DNA of 64,000 nt, taken from NCBI GenBank assembly GCA_965205265.1, contig CBDBGH010000003.1, positions 2,304,001 through 2,368,000 of the forward strand, in the 5' to 3' direction. The notes below the pieces were generated by a model. It made no database searches, was not told where the DNA came from, and worked only from the letters and a program-made list of their open reading frames with translations. Made by a program: the position numbers and the translations under genes. This DNA is from Alphaproteobacteria bacterium (GTDB lineage Bacteria > Pseudomonadota > Alphaproteobacteria > Bin95). This document shows, piece by piece, positions 21,087 through 50,680 of the stretch (its first letter is position 1; each line of letters begins with the position of its first letter).

Positions 21087-22546
21087 CGGGCGGCAAATGG
21101 ACTCACCGGACAGGATCGGCATGGCGGCGCAGCGGTTGTTGTGATTCGCTTCCGGGCATGCCGGACGGATCGGACATCGACGCGCTGAAGGCCGCGCTGG
21201 CGGCGGCCGAGACCCGGGCTACGAACGCCGAGGCGCAGATCGCCGCCCTGAAGCTGATGATCGAGAAGCTGCGCCGCGCGCTTTTCGGCCAGCGTTCGGA
21301 GCGCAAGCAGCGGCTTCTCGACCAGATGGAACTCCAGCTCGACGAGCTCGAGGCGAGCGCGACCGAGGACGAGCTGGCGGCCGAACAGGCGGCGGCCGGC
21401 GCGACCCGGGTCAAGGGCTTCACCCGCCGCCGCCGGTTCGGGCGCAAGCCGTTCCCCGCGCATCTGCCGCGCGAGCGCGTGGTGGTGACGCCGCCGGACG
21501 CCTGCGCATGCTGCGGCTCGCAGAAGCTCTCCAGGATCGGCGAGGACGTCACCGAGACGCTGGAGGTCATTCCGCGCCAGTGGAAGGTGATCCAGACGGT
21601 GCGCGAGAAGTTCACATGCCGCGATTGCGAGAAGATCAGCCAGCCGCCGGCGCCGTTCCACCCGACGCCGCGCGGCTGGGCGGGCCCCAACCTGCTCGCG
21701 ACGATCGTCTTCGAGAAGTATGGGCAGCACCAGCCGCTGAACCGCCAGCGCGACCGCTTCGCGCGCGAAGGCGTCGACCTCAGCCTGTCGACCCTGGCCG
21801 ACCAGGTCGGCGCCTGCACGGTGGCGCTGAGGCCGCTGCACGACCTGATCGCATCGCATGTCATGGCGGCCGAACGCCTGCATGGCGACGACACGCCGGT
21901 GCCGGTGCTGGCCAGGGGCAAGACCGACAAGGGCCGGGCCTGGGTCTATGTCCGCGACGACCGGCCGTTCGGCGGTCCGGACCCGCCGGCGGCCCTGTTC
22001 CGCTACTCGCGGAACCGCTCCGGCGATCATCCGGTCGAGCACCTGGAGAGCTTCGCCGGCATCCTCCAGGCCGACAGTTTCGCCGGCTACAACCGCCTCT
22101 ACGCGGCCACGCGGCTGCCCGGGCCTGTCACCGAAGTTCCCTGTTGGGCGCATGGTCGACGCAAATTCTTCGAACTCGCCGACATTGCCGCCGGCAAGGG
22201 GCGCAGGAACGCGCCGCCGATCTCGCCGCTGGCGATGGAAGCCGTGAAGCGGATCGACCTGCTGTTCGACATCGAGCGCGACATCAACGGCAAGACCGTC
22301 GCGCGGCGCCATGCCGTCCGCCAGGAGCTGAGCGCGCCGCTCGTCGCCGAACTCGAGACCTGGATGAAGGCCGAACGCGCCAGGCTCTCCCGTCATGCCC
22401 CCGTCGCCAAGGCCATGGACTACATGCTCAGACGATGGGACCGCTTCGCCCGCTTCCTCGACGACGGGCGCATCTGCCTCTCGAACAATGCCGCTGAAAG
22501 GGCGCTCAGGGGTATTGCGACGATGGAGTCATTCTGCACCCCCTCT

Positions 22547-24625
22547 TCAACTATCTGAAAACATTGACATCTGATCCCGGCATGAAGTGCGACGCGGGCC
22601 TTTCCTTTGTGCCAGGGCGTGAGCAACGCTCTCTGAATGGAGGTCCGCGGCTCTGATCTGCCAAGGCGCTCGGGGAACGAGCTGCGTGGCGGGTAGCGTT
22701 CCATCCTCGATGAGGCGCCTGAGCGTATGGCTGGTGGTGCCCAACTCGTTCGCCGCCTCGGTCATGGTGTACCAATCGCCCTGCTTGTCCGCTGAGAGAT
22801 AGCCGTCGATCCCGTTCACGCGACGGATCGATCCGACCCGCTTGCCGGTCCAGCTCTTGTGCTGGCCGGTCCGCATGCCCATCCGGTTGAGAGACGCAGC
22901 GATATGTTCGTCCGACCACCGCCCGGCCATGCTGCGTATCACCGCCAGCGCTTCCTCGGGCGTTCGGCAGCCATGTTCACCGGTTCTGGGCTTTCGAACC
23001 CGCAATCGGGAATGGCGGCCACCGACCCAGTGGATCGTCAGCAGGACTTCGCGCGCTTCCTCGTCGACATCGGCGACGATGCCGGCGATCAGGGTGCGTA
23101 CGAGCCGCTGGCGGGCACGCATGCTCACCCCCGGCGCGTTCCAGGCTGCCTTCAGGTCATCGGCAAGCCCGGCCAGATCCGGTCCCGAGGGCTGCGGTGA
23201 CGGCGACCGCATTGCCTCCAGCCGCGCTTCGCACACCTGGACGCGGCGAAGCGCCGCCTCCCAACTCTTCTCCAGCTCGGCGGCAATCAACCGGTTGTCC
23301 GGATCGCAGGCGGCATAGCGCCGCTCGGCGAGTGATGCTTCGTAGCGGGCTTGCTGCAGGTCCAGCTCGGCCACTCGCTGTTGTTCGCTCAGGCCCTCCA
23401 CCTTCACCCGCTCGGCCTTCAAGGAGGCTTCCACGGCCAAGGGCTCGACGACCCCGATGATCTCATCGGCAATGGCGGCATCCACACGCGCGCCGCCGAA
23501 CCTCAGACAGCGATCGAGCCCGAGCTGGAGGTGTTGCCGGTTGCAGAAATAAACAGGATTGCCCGGTGATTGCCCAGCATAGGCGACTGACATTGAGCGG
23601 CCGCAGCGCCCACAGCTGAGAAGTCCGCTCAGCAGCGCCCGTCCGCCGCGCCCGGACTTCGCGCCGCCGGACCAGCCGAAGGCGTTGGCGGCGAGTTGCG
23701 CCTGGTTGCGCTCGAACTCCGCCCAATCGATGTAGCCCTCGTGATGGTCCTTCAGCATGACCTCCCATTCCGCCATCGGTCTCCGGTGGCCATAGCTTTT
23801 GTGCACCCGCCCGTCGACGATCTCGGTTCGTTGTTCGCTTTTGCCGTAGGCATAGACACCAGCGTAGAAGGGGTTCTTCAATACCGAAATCACATTGCGA
23901 TAGCGGATCGGCGTCCAGTCGAAGCTAACCGTTGTCCTGCCATCTGACGGGCGCGGGAAGCAATGCTGCTGCTCGACCAGCGTCAACAGGACCTGCCGCG
24001 CGCTGCCCAGCTCGCGAAATCGGGCGAATATCTGACGGATCGCTTCCTGAACCCGAATGTCAGGATCCAGCCCCAGCCCGCCTTGGGGATGCCACACGTA
24101 ACCGATCGGGACGCTGATGCGAAGCTCGCCGCGCGCTGCCTTGGATCGGGCGGCGTCGAGCATCCGTGCGCGGAGAACGCCGAGTTCGAACTCACTGATC
24201 TGGCCCTTAAGTCCGAGCAGCAAGCGGTCGTTTGGGTGGCGAGGATCATAGATGCCATCCAGGTCGATGACGCGGGCCTCCACGAGACCGCAGAGCTCGA
24301 GCAGATGGTGCCAGTCCCGGCCGTTGCGGGAGATGCGAGACGCCTCGAAGCAAAGTACCGCTCCGACGTCCCCGGCACACAGCCAGGCGACGAGACGCTC
24401 GAAACCCGGCCGTGCGATGGCGCCACTCGCCGACAGGCCCAGATCTTCGTCGATGACCTCAACCCGGGCGAAACCGTGCCCGCGCGCCACGTTGACGAGA
24501 TCGTATTGGCGGCGCTGGCTCTCGAGATTGTTCCGCATCTGCTGGGGCGTGGACTGACGGACATAAACCACGGCCTTGCGCGTCAACACCGATCGCGGCA
24601 ACGCATCAGAGGTGCTCATCGTCAT
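22547..24625 (-). CDS. Large serine recombinase (resolvase + recombinase + Zn ribbon + C-terminal HTH)
   Basis: YVRQST, SRISRN, LKNPFYAG, LLSCGRCG, coiled coil. Confidence 0.95.
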   Translation of the reverse strand: MTMSTSDALPRSVLTRKAVVYVRQSTPQQMRNNLESQRRQYDLVNVARGHGFARVEVIDEDLGLSASGAIARPGFERLVAWLCAGDVGAVLCFEASRISRNGRDWHHLLELCGLVEARVIDLDGIYDPRHPNDRLLLGLKGQISEFELGVLRARMLDAARSKAARGELRISVPIGYVWHPQGGLGLDPDIRVQEAIRQIFARFRELGSARQVLLTLVEQQHCFPRPSDGRTTVSFDWTPIRYRNVISVLKNPFYAGVYAYGKSEQRTEIVDGRVHKSYGHRRPMAEWEVMLKDHHEGYIDWAEFERNQAQLAANAFGWSGGAKSGRGGRALLSGLLSCGRCGRSMSVAYAGQSPGNPVYFCNRQHLQLGLDRCLRFGGARVDAAIADEIIGVVEPLAVEASLKAERVKVEGLSEQQRVAELDLQQARYEASLAERRYAACDPDNRLIAAELEKSWEAALRRVQVCEARLEAMRSPSPQPSGPDLAGLADDLKAAWNAPGVSMRARQRLVRTLIAGIVADVDEEAREVLLTIHWVGGRHSRLRVRKPRTGEHGCRTPEEALAVIRSMAGRWSDEHIAASLNRMGMRTGQHKSWTGKRVGSIRRVNGIDGYLSADKQGDWYTMTEAANELGTTSHTLRRLIEDGTLPATQLVPRAPWQIRAADLHSESVAHALAQRKGPRRTSCRDQMSMFSDS

Positions 24626-24791
24626 CCTCCTTCACCGCGAAATCCGCCGCTTCCAGAAGCAGCCCGGCCAGCGCGCCCACGACCGCGTCGCGTTCCTCCC
24701 GGTTCAGGCCACGCAGCGCCGGTGTGTCCAACAGCATGCTGAGCTGTCGGAACTCGCCCGGCGGCCTCGCCGGTACAGCCAAAGACTTCAT
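24606..24791 (-). CDS. Small accessory protein upstream of recombinase
   Basis: Mirror of 25826-26011. Confidence 0.6.
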   Translation of the reverse strand: MKSLAVPARPPGEFRQLSMLLDTPALRGLNREERDAVVGALAGLLLEAADFAVKEDDDEHL

Positions 24792-25418
24792 TGAGCTCCT
24801 CCTCACTAACCGTCCCGTCAGCGGAGGAGCTTCGTCTAAAACCCTGGCCGACGAGAACCTCGTGAAGCGCGGCAAGAGCGGCCAGGGATACACGCGGCGC
24901 GCCGATCTCCATGCCGGCGCATGACGCAGGATCGAGCGACCAGGCGGGAATCTTGATGACCAGCCCGGGCTCTACCTCGACAGAGGCCATGAGGCCGTCG
25001 GCACGCTGTTCGATAACTTCAAGGCGGACACGGCGGCCGAAATGGGCATGCCACGGGTAATGGATGACGCAGTCCTGCCCGACATGGGCAGAATGAATGC
25101 ACGATCGCCCTCGGCCGCAAATCCTGGCTGTTCGCCGGCTCCGACCGCGGCGGCAGGCGCGCCGCGGCCATGTATACCCTCATCGGAACCGCCAAGCTCA
25201 ACAACGTCGATCCCCAGGCCTGGCTCGCCGATGTCCTGCGCCGGATCGCGGAGACGCCGCAGAGCCGGCTCGGCGAACTCCTTCCATGGAACCGGCAGGA
25301 CAGCCAGCGGCACGATAACGCCGCATAGCCAGACAAGCCCGCCCGATCCGTCCCGATCAACAGCACCCCGCAGACAAACTCAAACCGACATACCCTGCGG
25401 TCCTTGTCGGACGCTTAC

Positions 25419-25510
25419 AGTTTGGCGGTGCCGATGAGGGTATACATGGCCGCGGCGCGCCTGCCGCCGCGGTCGGAGCCGGCGAACAGCCAGGATTTGC
25501 GGCCGAGGGC
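25419..25510 (-). pseudogene. IS66 tnpC 3' fragment (ALGRKSWLF...TAKL)
   Basis: Near-identical to 25107-25198 (2 mismatches); cut by the right end of IS66 A. Confidence 0.8.
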
Positions 25511-25995
25511 GATCGTGCATTCATTCTGCCCATGTCGGGCAGGACTGCGTCATCCATTACCCGTGGCATGCCCATTTCGGCCGCCGTGTCCGCCTTGAAG
25601 TTATCGAACAGCGTGCCGACGGCCTCATGGCCTCTGTCGAGGTAGAGCCCGGGCTGGTCATCAAGATTCCCGCCTGGTCGCTCGATCCTGCGTCATGCGC
25701 CGGCATGGAGATCGGCGCGCCGCGTGTATCCCTGGCCGCTCTTGCCGCGCTTCACGAGGTTCTCGTCGGCCAGGGTTTTAGACGAAGCTCCTCCGCTGAC
25801 GGGACGGTTAGTGAGGAGGAGCTCAATGAAGTCTTTGGCTGTACCGGCGAGGCCGCCGGGCGAGTTCCGACAGCTCAGCATGCTGTTGGACACACCGGCG
25901 CTGCGTGGCCTGAACCGGGAGGAACGCGACGCGGTCGTGGGCGCGCTGGCCGGGCTGCTTCTGGAAGCGGCGGATTTCGCGGTGAAGGAGGATGA
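25511..25995 (+). CDS. Accessory ORF1; its upstream start would be supplied by the circle junction
   Basis: Frame open from the element end (SCIHSAHVGQDCVIHYPWHAHFG...IPAWSLD); internal ATG at 25627. Confidence 0.6.
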
Positions 25996-26011
25996 CGATG
26001 AGCACCTCTGA
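25826..26011 (+). CDS. Small accessory protein (61 aa)
   Basis: GAGGAG RBS; MKSLAVP...RQLSMLLD...LAGLLLEAA; overlaps recombinase start. Confidence 0.65.
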   Translation: MKSLAVPARPPGEFRQLSMLLDTPALRGLNREERDAVVGALAGLLLEAADFAVKEDDDEHL

Positions 26012-28070
26012 TGCGTTGCCGCGATCGGTGTTGACGCGCAAGGCCGTGGTTTATGTCCGTCAGTCCACGCCCCAGCAGATGCGGAACAATCTCGAGAGCC
26101 AGCGCCGCCAATACGATCTCGTCAACGTGGCGCGCGGGCACGGTTTCGCCCGGGTTGAGGTCATCGACGAAGATCTGGGCCTGTCGGCGAGTGGCGCCAT
26201 CGCACGGCCGGGTTTCGAGCGTCTCGTCGCCTGGCTGTGTGCCGGGGACGTCGGAGCGGTACTTTGCTTCGAGGCGTCTCGCATCTCCCGCAACGGCCGG
26301 GACTGGCACCATCTGCTCGAGCTCTGCGGTCTCGTGGAGGCCCGCGTCATCGACCTGGATGGCATCTATGATCCTCGCCACCCAAACGACCGCTTGCTGC
26401 TCGGACTTAAGGGCCAGATCAGTGAGTTCGAACTCGGCGTTCTCCGCGCACGGATGCTCGACGCCGCCCGATCCAAGGCAGCGCGCGGCGAGCTTCGCAT
26501 CAGCGTCCCGATCGGTTACGTGTGGCATCCCCAAGGCGGGCTGGGGCTGGATCCTGACATTCGGGTTCAGGAAGCGATCCGTCAGATATTCGCCCGATTT
26601 CGCGAGCTGGGCAGCGCGCGGCAGGTCCTGTTGACGCTGGTCGAGCAGCAGCATTGCTTCCCGCGCCCGTCAGATGGCAGGACAACGGTTAGCTTCGACT
26701 GGACGCCGATCCGCTATCGCAATGTGATTTCGGTATTGAAGAACCCCTTCTACGCTGGTGTCTATGCCTACGGCAAAAGCGAACAACGAACCGAGATCGT
26801 CGACGGGCGGGTGCACAAAAGCTATGGCCACCGGAGACCGATGGCGGAATGGGAGGTCATGCTGAAGGACCATCACGAGGGCTACATCGATTGGGCGGAG
26901 TTCGAGCGCAACCAGGCGCAACTCGCCGCCAACGCCTTCGGCTGGTCCGGCGGCGCGAAGTCCGGGCGCGGCGGACGGGCGCTGCTGAGCGGACTTCTCA
27001 GCTGTGGGCGCTGCGGCCGCTCAATGTCAGTCGCCTATGCTGGGCAATCACCGGGCAATCCTGTTTATTTCTGCAACCGGCAACACCTCCAGCTCGGGCT
27101 CGATCGCTGTCTGAGGTTCGGCGGCGCGCGTGTGGATGCCGCCATTGCCGATGAGATCATCGGGGTCGTCGAGCCCTTGGCCGTGGAAGCCTCCTTGAAG
27201 GCCGAGCGGGTGAAGGTGGAGGGCCTGAGCGAACAACAGCGAGTGGCCGAGCTGGACCTGCAGCAAGCCCGCTACGAAGCATCACTCGCCGAGCGGCGCT
27301 ATGCCGCCTGCGATCCGGACAACCGGTTGATTGCCGCCGAGCTGGAGAAGAGTTGGGAGGCGGCGCTTCGCCGCGTCCAGGTGTGCGAAGCGCGGCTGGA
27401 GGCAATGCGGTCGCCGTCACCGCAGCCCTCGGGACCGGATCTGGCCGGGCTTGCCGATGACCTGAAGGCAGCCTGGAACGCGCCGGGGGTGAGCATGCGT
27501 GCCCGCCAGCGGCTCGTACGCACCCTGATCGCCGGCATCGTCGCCGATGTCGACGAGGAAGCGCGCGAAGTCCTGCTGACGATCCACTGGGTCGGTGGCC
27601 GCCATTCCCGATTGCGGGTTCGAAAGCCCAGAACCGGTGAACATGGCTGCCGAACGCCCGAGGAAGCGCTGGCGGTGATACGCAGCATGGCCGGGCGGTG
27701 GTCGGACGAACATATCGCTGCGTCTCTCAACCGGATGGGCATGCGGACCGGCCAGCACAAGAGCTGGACCGGCAAGCGGGTCGGATCGATCCGTCGCGTG
27801 AACGGGATCGACGGCTATCTCTCAGCGGACAAGCAGGGCGATTGGTACACCATGACCGAGGCGGCGAACGAGTTGGGCACCACCAGCCATACGCTCAGGC
27901 GCCTCATCGAGGATGGAACGCTACCCGCCACGCAGCTCGTTCCCCGAGCGCCTTGGCAGATCAGAGCCGCGGACCTCCATTCAGAGAGCGTTGCTCACGC
28001 CCTGGCACAAAGGAAAGGCCCGCGTCGCACTTCATGCCGGGATCAGATGTCAATGTTTTCAGATAGTTGA
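25992..28070 (+). CDS. Large serine recombinase
   Basis: Same 692-aa translation as copy 1. Confidence 0.95.
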   Translation: MTMSTSDALPRSVLTRKAVVYVRQSTPQQMRNNLESQRRQYDLVNVARGHGFARVEVIDEDLGLSASGAIARPGFERLVAWLCAGDVGAVLCFEASRISRNGRDWHHLLELCGLVEARVIDLDGIYDPRHPNDRLLLGLKGQISEFELGVLRARMLDAARSKAARGELRISVPIGYVWHPQGGLGLDPDIRVQEAIRQIFARFRELGSARQVLLTLVEQQHCFPRPSDGRTTVSFDWTPIRYRNVISVLKNPFYAGVYAYGKSEQRTEIVDGRVHKSYGHRRPMAEWEVMLKDHHEGYIDWAEFERNQAQLAANAFGWSGGAKSGRGGRALLSGLLSCGRCGRSMSVAYAGQSPGNPVYFCNRQHLQLGLDRCLRFGGARVDAAIADEIIGVVEPLAVEASLKAERVKVEGLSEQQRVAELDLQQARYEASLAERRYAACDPDNRLIAAELEKSWEAALRRVQVCEARLEAMRSPSPQPSGPDLAGLADDLKAAWNAPGVSMRARQRLVRTLIAGIVADVDEEAREVLLTIHWVGGRHSRLRVRKPRTGEHGCRTPEEALAVIRSMAGRWSDEHIAASLNRMGMRTGQHKSWTGKRVGSIRRVNGIDGYLSADKQGDWYTMTEAANELGTTSHTLRRLIEDGTLPATQLVPRAPWQIRAADLHSESVAHALAQRKGPRRTSCRDQMSMFSDS

Positions 28071-28100
28071 AGAGGGGGTGCAGAATGACTCCATCGTCGC

Positions 28101-29414
28101 GATCGGCCTCATTGCGCGTTCGGCGGGGTTGTTGTCGATCTCGAGGAAGCCGTGCTCGAGATAGGGTCGAAGGCGCTTCATCCGGGTCAGGGCATGACGG
28201 ATCGCCGCTGCCAGCGGGGTCTTGGCGGAGATTCTGGGCAGCTGCGATTGCAGCCACCGCTCCAGCTCGTCGAGGCACGGCGCGGCCTTGGCCTGGCGGA
28301 TGGCCGCGCGGTTCTCGGGCGGCTGCCCGCGGGCCTCCTTCTCGATAGCGTAGAGGGCGGCGATCCGTTCCAGCGCCTCGGCGGCGATCGCCGAGCCCTG
28401 GGCGGCATGGACGTCGAAGAACTTGCGTCGCACATGCGCCAGACAGGCCACCTCGCGGACCGGCCCGGCGCGCGCCAGCGCACCGAACCCGGCATAGCCG
28501 TCCGAGTGCATCCAGCCGGCGAAGCCTTCAAGATGCGCCTTCGGATGCGCCGCCTTGCGGTCGGCCGAGAAGCGGTACCAGGCCGCCGGCGGCGCCTCGC
28601 CAGCCCAGGGCCGCTCGTCCCGCACGTAGGTCCAGGCCCGGCCGGTCGCCGTTTTGCCGGTTCCCGGCGCCAGCAGCTTGACCGGGGTGTCGTCGGCGAA
28701 CAGGGCTTGTCCTTCCAGCACATGGCGCCCGATCGCATCGGCCAGGGGCTCCAGCAGCGCCGTCGCCTTGCCGACCCAGCCGGCGAGCGTCGAGCGGTCG
28801 AGCTCGACGCCGTCGCGGGCGAAGATGCGGGACTGGCGGTAGAGCGGCAGGTGATCGCAATACTTCGAGACCAGCACATGCGCCAGAAGGCCGGGGCCCG
28901 GTCGGCCGCGCTCGATCGGTCGCGGCGGCAGCGGCGCCTGGTGGAACTTCTCGCAGCCGCCGCAGGCCAGGCGCGGACGGACGATGCGCTTCACCACGAA
29001 GCGGCCGGGGATGTACTCCAGCTCCTCCGTCACATCCTCGCCGAGCCGCTTGAGACGGCCGCCGCAGTCCGCGCAGCGCTCGCCCGGCGCGAGAACCGTC
29101 TCCTCGCGCGGCAGGTGGTCCGGCAGGGGACGGCGCTTCGGCTGCTTCTTCGTGGCGGGCGTCGGCTCGGTCGGCGCCTCGGCCGCCCGCGCGATCTCCT
29201 CGTCCTCCAGCCCGAGCTCAAGCTGGTCGAGGGCCTCCGAGGTGACGCCGAAGCGCTGCCGCCGCAGACCCGCAAGCTGGTGCCTGAGCTTCTCGATCAA
29301 CAGATCGCGGTTGCGCAGCTCGGCGTCCCGTGCCGCCAGTTCGGCCCGCGAGGCCAGCACCATCGCCTTCAACGCGGCGATGTCGTCGGGCAGGGAATGG
29401 GCCGCTTCGAGCAT
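28101..29414 (-). pseudogene. tnpC: IS66 TnpC cut at RPIA| by recombinase element
   Basis: KYCDHLPLYRQ, ADDTPV, CLAHVRRKF, IDNNPAERAMRPIA. Confidence 0.9.
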
Positions 29415-32585: not shown

Positions 32586-34226
32586 ATGGCTGCGCTTGCG
32601 GAGATGGACCTCGACACGCTGACGCCCGAACAGGCGGCGGCCGCGAGGCAGGCGCTTGCGGCGCTGGAGACGCTGCGTGCCGAGAACGAGACGCTGGCGG
32701 AAGAGAAGGCCTGTCTGGCGGGTGAGAACGAGGCGCAGGCCGAACGCATCCGCCGTCTGGAACATCTGAACCTGGAACTGATCCGGCTTCTGTATGGCAA
32801 GAGGTCGGAGAAGCTGTCGGCGGACGAACGCCAGCTGGCGTTCGAGGAGCTTGAGGGCGCGTCTGCGGAGGTGGAGGCCGCGGCGCCGCCGGAAGACCCG
32901 TCGCCGGCGCGCTCGGCGAAGCGGCCTCGTCCGGCGCGCAATCTCGGCCATTTGCCGGAACACCTGCCCCGGATCGAGCAGGTGATCGAGCCGGAGAGCA
33001 CGCTCTGCCCCTGCGGCTGCGGGGAGATGGTGCGGATCGGGGAAGATCGCGCCGAGAGGCTCGACATCGTGCCGGCGCAGTTGCGGGTGATCGTCACCGT
33101 GCGCCCGAAATACGCCTGCCGGACCTGCGAGGGAGGCGTCACCCAGGCGCCGGCGCCGGCCCGGCTGATCGAGGGCGCGCTGCCGACTGAAGGCGCCATC
33201 GCCCATGTTCTGATCTCGAAATACGCTGACCACACCCCGCTCTATCGTCAGAGCCGGATCTACGCCCGCTCGGGGCTGGAGCTGGACCGCTCGATCCTAG
33301 CCGGCTGGGTCGGCAAGGCGGCGTTCCACCTCGGGCCCGTGTATGACCGCCTGAAGGCGGCGCTGAAGACGTCGAACAATCTGGGTCTGGACGAGACCAC
33401 GGTTCGGGTTCTCGACCCGGGCCGGGGCAAGACGAAGACCGGCTATCTGTGGACGATGGCGCGCGACGAGCGGGCCTGGTCCGGGGCGGACCCGCCGGGC
33501 GTGGCGTATGAGTATGCGCCCGGGCGTAGCGGCAAGCATGGCGAGAGGCTTCTCGAGGGCTTCAGGGGAACGGTGCAGATCGACGGCTACTCCGGCCACA
33601 ACCGACTGGCTCGGCCGAACCGGGCGGGCGGGGCGCTGACGCGGGCTGCCTGTTGGGTCCATGCCAGGCGGGGCCCCAAGGAGGTGTTCGACAGTAGCGG
33701 CTCGCCGATCGCGAAAGAGGCTCTGAGGCGGATCGCGCAACTCTACGCGATCGAGGACAGGATCCGGGGTGAGCCGCCGGCGACGCGCCAGTTTGTCCGC
33801 TGGACCGAGGCCGCGCCGCTGGTGAACGCCTTCGGGGTGTGGCTCGACGAGCAACGCTCGCGCGTCTCGCCCAAGTCCCGGCTCGGTGAGAAGCTGTCCT
33901 ATATCGCCAACCACTGGGAGAGGTTGCTGGTGTTCCTCTATGACGGCGCGTCGAGATGGACAGCAACTTCGTCGAAAACCGCATCCGGCCGCAGAAGCTC
34001 ACCGCGAAAAACGCCCTGTTCGCCGGCCACGATGAGGGCGCGCGCTCATGGGGCCGCGTCGGTAGCCTGATCGAGACCTGCAAGATGAACGGCGTTGAGC
34101 CCTACGCCTGGCTCAAGGACACGCTGGAGAAAATCGCCGGAGCCTGCCCCTGCGAAGGCGGGGGGCCACCCCAACAGCCGCATCGACGACCTACTTCCCT
34201 GGAACTTCATCCCGCCGTCAAGCTGA
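32586..34226 (+). pseudogene. tnpC: IS66 TnpC with frameshift (~33945) and ~25-bp palindromic insertion
   Basis: MDSNFVENRIRP lies in a different frame from the body of the gene. Confidence 0.85.
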
Positions 34227-40218: not shown

Positions 40219-42169
40219 ACGCAACACCTAACCCATGCGACGCTGCTCGCAAGCCGCACAAACCGGCCGTTCCGCGCCAGCAAATAAACGCCCTTCCTAA
40301 CCGTCGCTAACACGGCCCGGCTGATCGAGGGCGCGCTGCCGACCGAAGGCGCCATCGCGCATGTCCTGATCTCGAAATACGCTGACCATACCCCTCTCTA
40401 CCGCCAGGCGACCGTCTACGCCCGCTCGGGGATGAAGCTGGACCGCTCGACCCTCGCCGGCTGGGTCGGCAAGGCGGCGTTCCACCTCGGACCGGTGTAT
40501 GAACGCCTGAAGGCGACGCTGAAGACGTCGAGCACTCTGGGTCTGGACGAGACCACGGTCCGGGTTCTCGACCCGGGCCGGGGCAAGACGAAGACCGGCT
40601 ACCTTTGGACGATGGTGCGCGACGAGCGGTCATGGTCCGGGGCGGACCCGCCGGGCGTGGTCTATGAGTATGCGCCCGGGCGTGGCGGCAAGCATGGCGA
40701 GAAGTTGCTTGATGGCTTCAGGGGAACGGTGCAGATCGACGGCTATGCCGGCCACAACCGGCTGGCCCGGCGGGACCGACCGGGCGGGGCGCTGACGCTG
40801 GCTTCATGTTGGGCCCATGCCAGGCGTGGCCCCAAGGAGGTGTTCGACAGTAGCGGCTCGCCGATCGCGAAAGAGGCTCTGAGGCGGATCGCGCAACTCT
40901 ACGCGATCGAGGACAGGATCCGGGGTGAGCCGCCGGCGACGCGCCAGTTTGTCCGCTGGACCGAGGCCGCGCCGCTGGTGAACGCCTTCGGGGTGTGGCT
41001 CGACGAGCAACGCTCGCGCGTCTCGCCCAAGTCCCGGCTCGGTGAGAAGCTGTCCTATATCGCCAACCACTGGGAGAGGTTGCTGGTGTTCCTCTATGAC
41101 GGCGCGTCGAGATGGACAGCAACTTCGTCGAAAACCGCATCCGGCCGCAGAAGCTCACCGCGAAAAACGCCCTGTTCGCCGGCCACGATGAGGGCGCGCG
41201 CTCATGGGGCCGCGTCGGTAGCCTGATCGAGACCTGCAAGATGAACGGCGTCGAGCCTTACGCCTGGCTCAAGGACACTCTGGAGAAAATCGCCGGAGCC
41301 TGCCCCTGCGAAGGCGGGGGGCCACCCAAACAGCCGCATCGACGAGCTTCTCCCCTGGAACTTCGTCCCGCCGTCAAGCTGAAAGCCCGGTGCCTCTCCC
41401 GCACCGCTTACCGACCGCGGGCAGGGCCGCGCCAACGGTCCCGGCCGCGACGCCGGCCACGAAAAGGCCGCCGAACCGAAGCAGAAGACGCCCGACTTCG
41501 ACCTCGGGATGTAGCCTCCCGGCTCCGCTTCCGGCCAGCCCGACGGCGGCGGCAACCCCGAAACGTCCGGCAAGGCGCGCGCGTTCAAGCCGCCGGTCTC
41601 TCCGGAATCGGGCGCCGGATCGCCAGCCGCCGCCACGCGGCGACAGGGACGCTCTGCCGTGTCCTGGAGCCGCCTGATGCCGCCTCCGGTATCTTGGGAA
41701 AGCGCGCAACCGATCGGGCGCGCTGTTGGAAATCCCCTGCCCGGAGAGTCCCGCAGGATTCGCACTGTGGGACGGAACAAACACAGGAATTGTCCCGCCG
41801 AATCAAGGGCGTCATACGGCGCAATGCGCCGGAGCACCGATCGGCATGCACGCTTTTCCATGATACGATTGGCGGCGTTTGGCGGCCCCAGCGCACCGCA
41901 GCGCACGTCAGTCCGCCCATGCCGCGTTTCGCACCATGGTGCGGCAGGTGTGTCCAGGCTCCCGCCCTCCGGGCGGTCGGACAAGGCAAGCTCTGCCGCA
42001 ATGCCCTTTTGCCGCAACCCCGGCAACGGCAGGGAGTCCCAGCCGTCGCGGCGCTTGAGCGAGACGACCGGCCAACGATCCGTGAGCGCGTTCCGCGTCG
42101 CCTTCCTGACGGCAGAGGTAACAGAACGGCGGGCGACTGTCGCGGTCGGCGGGATGACGCCGGGCGCGT

Positions 42170-50344: not shown

Positions 50345-50680
50345 ATGAGTTCCGTCATCAACCTGAAGCACGCGCCCACGCTGCGCGCGCTGCTCGCCCG
50401 CCATCCGGTGCAGGACGCCGCCGTCCTGATCGACCGCCGCACGCCCTGGGGCAATCCGTTCCGGATCGGCCCCGGCCAGGACCGCGCCCGGGCGACCGCG
50501 CGCTACCGCGCCGATCTCTGGCGGCGCATCCGCGCCGGCGAGATCGATCTGGAGGCGCTGGCCGCGCTGCATGGCCGCCGCCTCGCCTGCTGGTGCGCGC
50601 CGCTGCCCTGTCACGGCCATGTGCTGGCCCGTGCCGCGGCCTGGGCGGCGCGGCAGCTGGCGGACGGGGGCGCGTCATGA
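50345..50680 (+). CDS. DUF4326 family protein
   Basis: WGNPF...LHGRRLACWCAPLPCHGHVL; strong RBS. Confidence 0.88.
   Translation: MSSVINLKHAPTLRALLARHPVQDAAVLIDRRTPWGNPFRIGPGQDRARATARYRADLWRRIRAGEIDLEALAALHGRRLACWCAPLPCHGHVLARAAAWAARQLADGGAS

Follow-up and report, generated by a model that had tools for sequence, protein, structure and literature searches.

We analysed a window of 64,000 nucleotides (nt) from an Alphaproteobacteria bacterium (GenBank assembly GCA_965205265.1, contig CBDBGH010000003.1, positions 2,304,001 to 2,368,000 of the forward strand); the window is this whole stretch, and coordinates count from its first letter. Positions 25511-28100 of the plus strand hold an insertion sequence (IS)-like unit of 2,590 bp, including one copy of its crossover dinucleotide, which encodes a large serine recombinase (LSR). 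The element holds three genes, namely open reading frame 1 (ORF1), ORF2, and the LSR gene (Table 1). The source genome carries five copies of the element, which are 100% identical across all 2,590 bases. The first-pass annotation of the locus, made from the letters alone, had proposed that one gene is assembled only upon excision, with its ribosome-binding site and start codon at the right end of the element and its body at the left end. Comparison with relatives of the element supports this interpretation overall.

The ends of the element are defined by the flanks of the five genomic copies. The identity of the copies ends at the same two points, and the dinucleotide GC is the sole sequence common to the left flank and the right end. 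The 7-bp core GCGATCG given in the first-pass annotation is a coincidence of copy 2, the copy described here, and the comparison of five flanks leaves GC only. The junction sequence and its frame are identical under a 7-bp or a 2-bp core. There is no target-site duplication, and imperfect inverted arms surround the 2-bp crossover (repeat I6, region 25511-25540 versus 28080-28111). Relatives were taken from species genomes (80 loci) and from metagenomes (80 loci), and identical ones were collapsed to unique loci. The dinucleotide varies among the 62 unique elements with both ends, being GC in 43, TT in four, AC in four, GT in four, and others in the remainder. In 48 of the 62, the left flank ends in the same two bases, and the position of exchange is thereby fixed without reference to the reading frame.

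At the right end, the signals described in the first-pass annotation are all present. The stop codon of the LSR gene (TGA, 28068-28070) is followed by GAGGGGG, a purine run that resembles a Shine-Dalgarno (SD) sequence, and by an ATG at 28085-28087. This ATG lies 14 nt past the stop, and 16 nt separate its A from the element end, both included. When the ends are joined, these 16 nt and positions 25511-25512 make six codons, and 160 codons follow from 25513. The joined ORF1 thus has the 166 codons that had been claimed, with no stop before 25995. The joined frame at 25513 is also the frame of an internal ATG at 25627. Codon six of the joined ORF1 contains the crossover, and attP is thus located inside a coding sequence.

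The same arrangement is found in the relatives. Of 63 unique right ends, 61 have an ATG at +14 or +15 relative to the LSR stop and at an invariant distance from the crossover. Under a loose motif, 58 of these 61 carry an SD-like run before the ATG, and under a strict one 42 of 61 do; the background rates, taken from 11-nt windows of LSR genes, are 14.4% and 8.7%, respectively. Among the 62 unique elements with both ends, 61 have a joined frame that is open over its first 106 codons. The sole exception (L012) has ends with mismatched dinucleotides. Conservation of the frame and of the ribosome-binding site across attP, on which the first-pass annotation had staked its proposal, extends to homologues with as little as 39% identity in ORF1. 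An expression signal at one end and a gene body at the other, united only on end-joining, is a conserved layout of this element.

ORF1 consists of a conserved domain (codons 1 to about 95) and an unconserved tail, which starts at about codon 92 and overlaps ORF2. Codon entropy was calculated for left ends from species genomes and the window; of 76 unique left ends, 70 were usable, and the other six were excluded because they had an internal stop or lacked a motif. Codons 9-38 give entropies of 0.71, 0.62, and 1.47 at the first, second, and third positions, and codons 39-90 give 0.97, 0.70, and 1.50, the same pattern. Codons 4-8 (25522-25536) have near-zero entropy at all three positions. This invariance points to a constraint at the DNA level, most simply a recombinase site. 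The outer part of the block has no counterpart in the right arm, and it may be read by something beyond the symmetric recombinase half-site.

The ATG at 25627 (codon 39) is conserved in only six of 122 unique loci. In the first protein search, relatives with 54-62% identity aligned across the whole extension upstream of it and had no methionine at this position. In addition, no position among the first 40 codons is start-capable in more than 14 of the 122 loci, and one of codons 1-3 is start-capable in only eight. An AlphaFold 2 model of ORF1, built on an alignment of 61 relatives, has pLDDT values of 80-95 for residues 5-90. Strands are found at residues 10-13, 25-34, and 37-45, and the extension thus holds three of the four. 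The coding signature, the non-conserved methionine, and the fold spanning the extension together argue that ORF1 is a real gene, that its conserved domain begins at the element end, and that 25627 is not its start. Translation of ORF1 as a gene starting at 25627, which had been named as the finding that would speak against the split gene, is thus at odds with the 38 coding codons upstream.

In the integrated state, a start codon for ORF1 is mostly lacking. As had been stated, the N-terminus of ORF1 has no start codon in the integrated state; 25 open codons of the left flank precede it without an ATG, GTG, or TTG, and then comes a stop. We surveyed 67 loci whose left flank covers 150 nt or more. 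In 31 of them, the stretch from the last stop to the element lacks an in-frame ATG, GTG, or TTG, and about 14 of the 67 have a stop no more than two codons from the element end.

Public databases contain proteins of the type expected from the joined ends. Seven public predicted proteins (P0010, P0033, P0150, P0157, P0200, P0263, and P0197, the last of these doubtful) begin exactly six codons before the anchor, and none of the 67 flanks has an ATG at that place. Six of the seven match the coding capacity of the right end, with M, then T or N, then a stretch rich in serine and proline. The first six residues of P0010 are those of the in-silico junction peptide of three loci. The proteins sit on short contigs of 660-2712 nt, which do not discriminate between a circle and a tandem. 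These sequences are the sole physical hint of joined ends.

The tail of ORF1 is conserved in a different way. In 104 of 112 unique loci, the ORF1 frame runs for 158-167 codons and ends no more than a few bases from the conserved ATG of the LSR gene; in 67 of those 104, the stop overlaps this ATG as ATGA. ORF2 lies in this region, and it is the frame with the normal distribution of G+C by codon position in a GC plot. Its core is conserved with a coding pattern in 100 unique relatives. The constraint at the protein level in the overlap acts on ORF2, not on the ORF1 tail. The tail has a G+C content at third positions (GC3) of about 0.4, resembling an alternative-frame translation, and it has pLDDT values below 50 and is predicted to be disordered. 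Its frame is nevertheless open across ORF2 in 101 of 104 loci, versus 30.7 expected from synonymous resampling of ORF2 codons. The other alternative frame is open in none of the 104, versus 10.8 expected. Judged from these alignments, selection keeps the frame of the ORF1 tail rather than its sequence. A frame that is kept in an unconserved tail fits a role for the act of translation, which would couple into the LSR start and perhaps occlude the ORF2 start. ORF2 itself has no match to a Pfam, NCBIfam, or PHROG family, and its AlphaFold 2 model is essentially one long helix (residues 31-58).

The LSR matches PF00239 (Resolvase, E 8e-22), PF07508 (Recombinase, E 4.5e-17), and PF13408 (Zn_ribbon_recom, E 2.8e-7), all above the Pfam cut-offs. 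The start conserved among relatives is the second of two ATGs (25998). The closest solved structure is that of the SPbeta integrase YokA (E 2e-6). The order of catalytic, recombinase, and zinc-ribbon domains, the 2-bp crossover without duplication, and the imperfect inverted arms are those of LSR elements. By its anatomy, the unit is a minimal LSR-moved transposable element of about 2.58 kb. Excision to a circle and re-integration are indicated indirectly, by the five identical copies within diverged IS66 copies and by the junction-type ORFs in public assemblies. Assignment to the IS607 family, whose transposases are small and have an N-terminal DNA-binding and a C-terminal catalytic domain, was considered and rejected; here the catalytic domain is N-terminal in a protein of 690 residues, and NF033518 scores 18 bits against a cut-off of 110. 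An additional HTH_17/excisionase-type domain occupies residues 616-661 at the C-terminus (about 27840-27980; Pfam E 1.9e-6, with TIGR01764 just over its cut-off), which is unusual in a large serine recombinase. The final 20 nt of the gene (28051-28070) are conserved as DNA, third positions included, in relatives whose proteins differ there. Nothing at the left end mirrors this block, which could serve as an accessory binding site, as a promoter component, or as an RNA signal immediately before the SD-like run.

The 90 N-terminal residues of ORF1 model as an SH3/Tudor-like barrel followed by a helix. A Foldseek search of the PDB returns only weak SH3/Tudor/PsaE-like matches (best E 0.18, TM-score of about 0.6 on the target), and a sequence profile search of the PDB returns none. 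ORF1 has no match in Pfam, NCBIfam, or PHROG, and no similarity to an annotated family of recombination directionality factors (RDFs) was found. We modelled the complex of the LSR with residues 1-95 of ORF1 using custom alignments. The ipSAE score is 0.66, versus 0.00 for the best control; the mark applied to such models is reached by 58 of 80 solved complexes and by two of 110 mismatched pairs. The runs share at least 85% of their contacts, and the partner has a pLDDT of at least 72. In the model, the ORF1 helix (residues 65-90) contacts LSR residues 335-342, 386-403, and 479-538, which belong to the zinc ribbon and to the segments on either side of the predicted coiled coil. Directionality factors of serine integrases act at this same region. 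The predicted complex supports binding of ORF1 to the LSR.

The first-pass annotation had suggested that the product is a directionality factor or another regulator. The modelled binding to the LSR agrees with this suggestion, but a classical RDF is made from the integrated element, which ORF1 cannot be, and we therefore propose the opposite polarity. We consider it likely that the element carries a split gene that is completed by end-joining, and that ORF1 is an accessory factor that acts after excision and biases the LSR toward re-integration. In the integrated state, ORF1 would have no translation start. Excision and end-joining, in a circle or equivalently in a head-to-tail tandem, would complete the 166-codon ORF1, which would be translated by ribosomes that leave the LSR gene or that bind to the SD sequence. 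No terminator-like site was found on the plus strand between the LSR gene and the element end, and read-through from the LSR gene to the joined ORF1 is therefore counted as favoured. ORF1 would act both as a sensor of the recombination state and as an accessory factor, binding the LSR and biasing it toward re-integration. Its translation may couple into the LSR start and occlude initiation at ORF2, which is a candidate excision factor.

A more specific proposal, which we hold only tentatively, is a directionality switch at the level of translation. The integrated copy would make ORF2 and the LSR from their own SD sequences for excision, and translation of the joined ORF1 would pass across the ORF2 start and silence ORF2, end on the LSR ATG and boost the LSR, and yield a product that forces integration. 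The barrel and helix of ORF1 would bind to the base of the LSR coiled coil as an 'integration directionality factor', the mirror of an RDF. The circle would then hold its three genes in a closed loop of coupled translation, in which the LSR stop is followed after 14 nt by the ORF1 ATG and the ORF1 stop lies at the LSR ATG.

Several observations weigh against a gene split by the element ends. The right-end ATG lies within the inverted repeat (GCAnAATGA facing TCATTCTGC), its mirror being the first histidine codon of ORF1 (CAT), and the geometry of the recombinase site alone could hold both the ATG and its in-frame spacing. An in-frame flank ATG occurs in 25 of the 67 integrated copies, and some in-frame start in 36. 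The antisense strand of an NCA-TGG codon pair in tnpC, the IS66-family transposase gene into which the element inserts, supplies a recurrent ATG in six of the 67; as a result, 25 of 93 public predicted proteins begin at the same place, ten residues before an H-S-A-H motif. Within ORF1 itself, codon 1 is TTG in seven of 122 unique loci. The back-joint was not seen in Logan contigs from four runs of four studies aligned to 25300-28300, a result that is uninformative because contigs drop rare variants; the loose contig ends in those runs show alternative flanks and an unoccupied IS66 site only. None of the 80 metagenome loci has the 3' end of the LSR gene upstream of ORF1. A scan of 25300-28300 found no sigma-70-like site, which leaves neither state with a recognised promoter, and no consistent hybrid -35/-10 promoter spans the joint in in-silico joints of about 60 unique relatives. 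A recurrent pair wholly in the right end (TTTnCA or TnCAGA with nAnAAT, at 17-19 nt spacing) was rejected as a promoter, because its -10 element overlaps the ATG and would exclude the ATG from the transcript. In addition, the loci are mutually related, so the counts overstate independence, and the direction of the effect of ORF1 on recombination is something that we purely infer.

ORF1 might accordingly be translated in the integrated state, from a start supplied by the flank or from a non-canonical start at the left end, with the right-end ATG and purine run kept as a recombinase site and the frame a by-product of geometry. We think this unlikely. Besides the 31 flanks that have no start, an in-frame start with an SD-like run before it is found in only five of the 67, and the public set of predicted proteins is biased toward start-bearing copies. 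The symmetric part of the arms does not include the purine run, which is unmirrored at the left arm and varies yet stays SD-like in the relatives. The six joined codons contain no stop except in the one element with mismatched ends. Geometry alone cannot explain the asymmetric and variable SD-like run, the stop-free joined codons, the selected gene without a start at the element end, and the junction-type proteins. The first-pass statement that the product comes only from the circle is not absolute, since some flanks supply an ATG and a head-to-tail tandem would make the same junction. The junction that completes ORF1 might indeed arise mainly in such tandems, and ORF1 would then mark a tandem intermediate. 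Head-to-tail tandems have precedents in (IS21)2 and (IS30)2, a serine recombinase could integrate a circle into the attP-like joint or into the end of a resident copy, and the short contigs with junction-type ORFs do not distinguish the two forms. However, no tandem occurs among the five genomic copies or the 160 loci of relatives, the LSR end is upstream of ORF1 neither in the genome loci with flanks nor in the metagenome loci, and serine recombinase elements such as Tn4451 typically excise as a circle. We regard a mainly tandem origin as very unlikely. That ORF1 is a spurious open frame in G+C-rich DNA, with ORF2 and the LSR as the only genes, is scarcely credible. The GC3 and alternative-frame look of its tail and the lack of a Pfam, NCBIfam, or PHROG family would agree with a spurious frame, but the coding signature of codons 9-90, the confident fold, the complex model that passes its controls, and the excess of open frames across ORF2 contradict it, as do the 2,930 representative clusters that match the ORF1 profile at E <= 0.001.

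Table 1. Features of the element, its second copy in the window, and the interrupted target
Feature	Position	Strand	Remarks
Element copy 2	25511..28100	+	Five identical genomic copies; ends set by flank comparison
Left (P') arm of attP	25511..25540	+	Imperfect inverted repeat with 28080-28111 (I6); holds block 25522-25536
ORF1 body	25513..25995	+	160 codons and stop TGA 25993-25995; no start codon of its own; stop 2 nt before LSR ATG
ORF2, 61 aa	25826..26011	+	Own, strong SD 25813-25821; within ORF1 tail, in another frame; ends 14 nt into LSR gene
LSR	25998..28070	+	690 aa from conserved ATG (692 aa from ATG 25992); SD GGAGG 25987-25991
SD-like purine run GAGGGGG for right-end ATG	28072..28078	+	Sequence varies, SD-like in 58/61 relatives; outside symmetric att arms
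Right-end ATG and 13 nt to element end	28085..28100	+	First five codons and one base of joined ORF1; ATG within right (P) arm repeat
Crossover dinucleotide GC	attL 25509-25510, attR 28099-28100	.	Flank comparison of five copies
Element copy 1, inverted	22517..25106	-	Parts mirrored at 50617 minus x; inverted repeat I1, ORF list, locus L005
Parts of copy 1	ATG 22532-22530; ORF1 body 25104-24622; LSR 24625-22547	-	
Interrupted target, tnpC N-terminal 438 codons, IS66 family	28101..29414	-	Pfam DDE_Tnp_IS66, zf-IS66, LZ_Tnp_IS66
Left flank of copy 2	25419..25510	-	92-nt tnpC C-terminal coding fragment (…ALGRKSWLF…), truncated by neighbouring IS66 end

Four of the five genomic copies occupy one position in tnpC genes of the IS66 family, between the codons for ...R-x-I-A and L-G-R-K-x-W... 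The fifth copy (L002, G000:C3:3807738-3810327) lies outside IS66, and its left half-site (…CTGGCCGAGGC) resembles the IS66 target, which suggests that the left half-site dominates target recognition. Among relatives, the IS66 target motif is present at 44 of 63 unique insertion sites. The IS66 copies that surround the elements differ by several substitutions per 150 nt, and the elements inside them are identical. Therefore, the insertions are recent and independent, or else the elements have been homogenised. GC, the commonest crossover dinucleotide (43 of 62), reads the same on both strands, and the IS66 target is likewise a partial palindrome. Several relatives (L023, L025, L037, L043, and L067) have the element at the same tnpC site in the opposite orientation.

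The flanks of copy 2 are hybrid. The tnpC gene on its right (28101-29414) has only 43% protein identity to the tnpC that holds copy 1, and the 92 nt on its left (25419-25510) are nearly identical to the flank of copy 1 that encodes the C-terminal part (25107-25198) and are ended by an IS66 terminal repeat motif (25412-25418). This looks like recombination between copies of the element or a nested IS66 insertion. A wider duplication that includes the outer flank, suggested by the 2,742-nt repeat I1, was rejected, because the right flanks differ and the inner 92 nt alone are alike. Two more IS66-family tnpC copies in the window (32745-34205 and 40318-41361) are unoccupied. They are diverged at the target position, with …IRPQKLTAKNALF in place of …RPIALGRKSWLF.

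ORF1 has a possible relation to DUF5372 (PF17342). In Pfam, one of 61 ORF1 relatives matches this family at E 0.04, below the gathering score, and the ORF1 of the window gives no match. A language-model search with ORF1 places 30 of 30 matches in DUF5372 clusters (score 0.93), and hhalign of ORF1 against six DUF5372 segments gives a weak alignment (probability 26%, E 7e-4, 45 columns). Locus L170, which lies upstream of a related LSR, is matched by PF17342 (E 1.9e-4, below the cut-off) as well as by ORF1 (tblastn E 4e-10). Genuine DUF5372 genes from genomes of the same genus adjoin other serine recombinases (L166 1426-1731, minus strand; L167 1396-1770; L174 1267-1641; L170 1384-1926; L175 1066-2580). 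The gene in L166 lies upstream of a serine recombinase. The frames in L167 and L174 contain no methionine anywhere, the frame in L170 contains none upstream of the domain, and in L175 an open frame of 505 codons begins with the domain. Other families, for example DUF5372-like genes beside serine recombinases, may have a split-start layout as well.

Joining of element ends is known to create expression signals in other systems. The circular intermediate of Tn4451/Tn4453, which are moved by the LSR TnpX, reportedly forms a promoter for tnpX (work ascribed to Lyras and Rood, 2000). These elements are like ours in having an LSR and an excised circle, and in that end-joining creates an expression signal that is absent from the integrated state. 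They differ in that a promoter is assembled and drives the recombinase, whereas here a coding sequence is split, the product would be an accessory protein, and no consistent hybrid sigma-70 promoter is found. Promoters are also assembled at circle or tandem junctions of IS911/IS3, IS30, IS21, IS492, and IS110-type elements. In these small insertion sequences, too, the joined ends switch on functions needed for integration, but through DDE or DEDD transposases and a promoter; in our element, a translation start is joined to an ORF, and the enzyme is a serine recombinase.

Genes split by attP are known as well. Integrases of SSV1-type archaeal viruses have attP inside int, and the gene is partitioned upon integration; in that case, it is the recombinase itself that is split. 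Mycobacteriophage BPs has integration-dependent immunity, with attP inside the repressor gene (PMC4557955). Both resemble our element in that attP lies within a coding sequence and the integrated and excised products differ. In BPs, the 3' end of the repressor gene is removed and a shorter active protein results, whereas here the 5' end is lost together with the start codon, and the gene should be silent.

Among integrative and conjugative elements (ICEs), Pcirc of ICEclc and P3'end of ICEKp1 are promoters for int that switch with the state of the element (PMC13023037). There, as here, a signal of the far end is placed upstream of a gene of the near end only in the excised form. However, these ICEs span tens of kb and use tyrosine recombinases, control is exerted on transcription, and the start codon stays with the gene. 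In IS91, the accessory frame orf121 regulates transposition, and its stop overlaps the transposase start (PMC13181058). IS91 differs in being an HUH rolling-circle element whose orf121 has its own start and promoter and is unsplit by the ends. RDFs of the SPbeta type are likewise small proteins encoded by the element (PDB 9dxd names a YokA-YotN fusion, of the SPbeta integrase SprA/YokA and the RDF SprB/YotN), and ORF1 is modelled near the zinc ribbon and coiled-coil base of the LSR. Again, a classical RDF is made from the integrated element, whereas ORF1 is start-less there and has no similarity to annotated RDF families.

Promoter-level end-joining and genes split by attP are thus known, and a translation-initiation region split from its ORF would be a new variant. 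Literature searches found no description of this element family, of ORF1, of DUF5372, or of a start codon parted from its ORF by attP; a large LSR survey (PMC10083194) may include this recombinase cluster and the site that it targets. The element apparently represents an undescribed and widespread family of serine-recombinase elements that target IS66. Relatives occur in Paracoccus, Sinorhizobium/Ensifer, Mesorhizobium, and Azospirillum. They are carried by 257 plasmid records, in which they are labelled only 'recombinase family protein' and 'hypothetical protein', and no relative was found in viral contigs.

A mobile element needs to perform opposite acts, leaving when integrated and inserting when free. 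Known solutions are transcription that is re-wired at joined ends and directionality factors that are separately regulated. The evidence presented here points to a simpler and stricter device, in which the att site separates the start codon of a gene from its body, and the product can be made only after excision. If this is true and the product steers the LSR, ORF1 would be the first LSR accessory factor that is gated by the recombination state itself. It would also provide a ready-made control part for serine integrases in genome engineering, and it would explain a family of 2,930 representative clusters that appear to gene callers as mis-annotated 'start-less' ORFs. The element is a parasite of parasites, which homes to a conserved motif of IS66 transposases and knocks out their genes. 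Its targeting of IS66 bears on how insertion sequences are restrained in rhizobial and marine alphaproteobacterial genomes.

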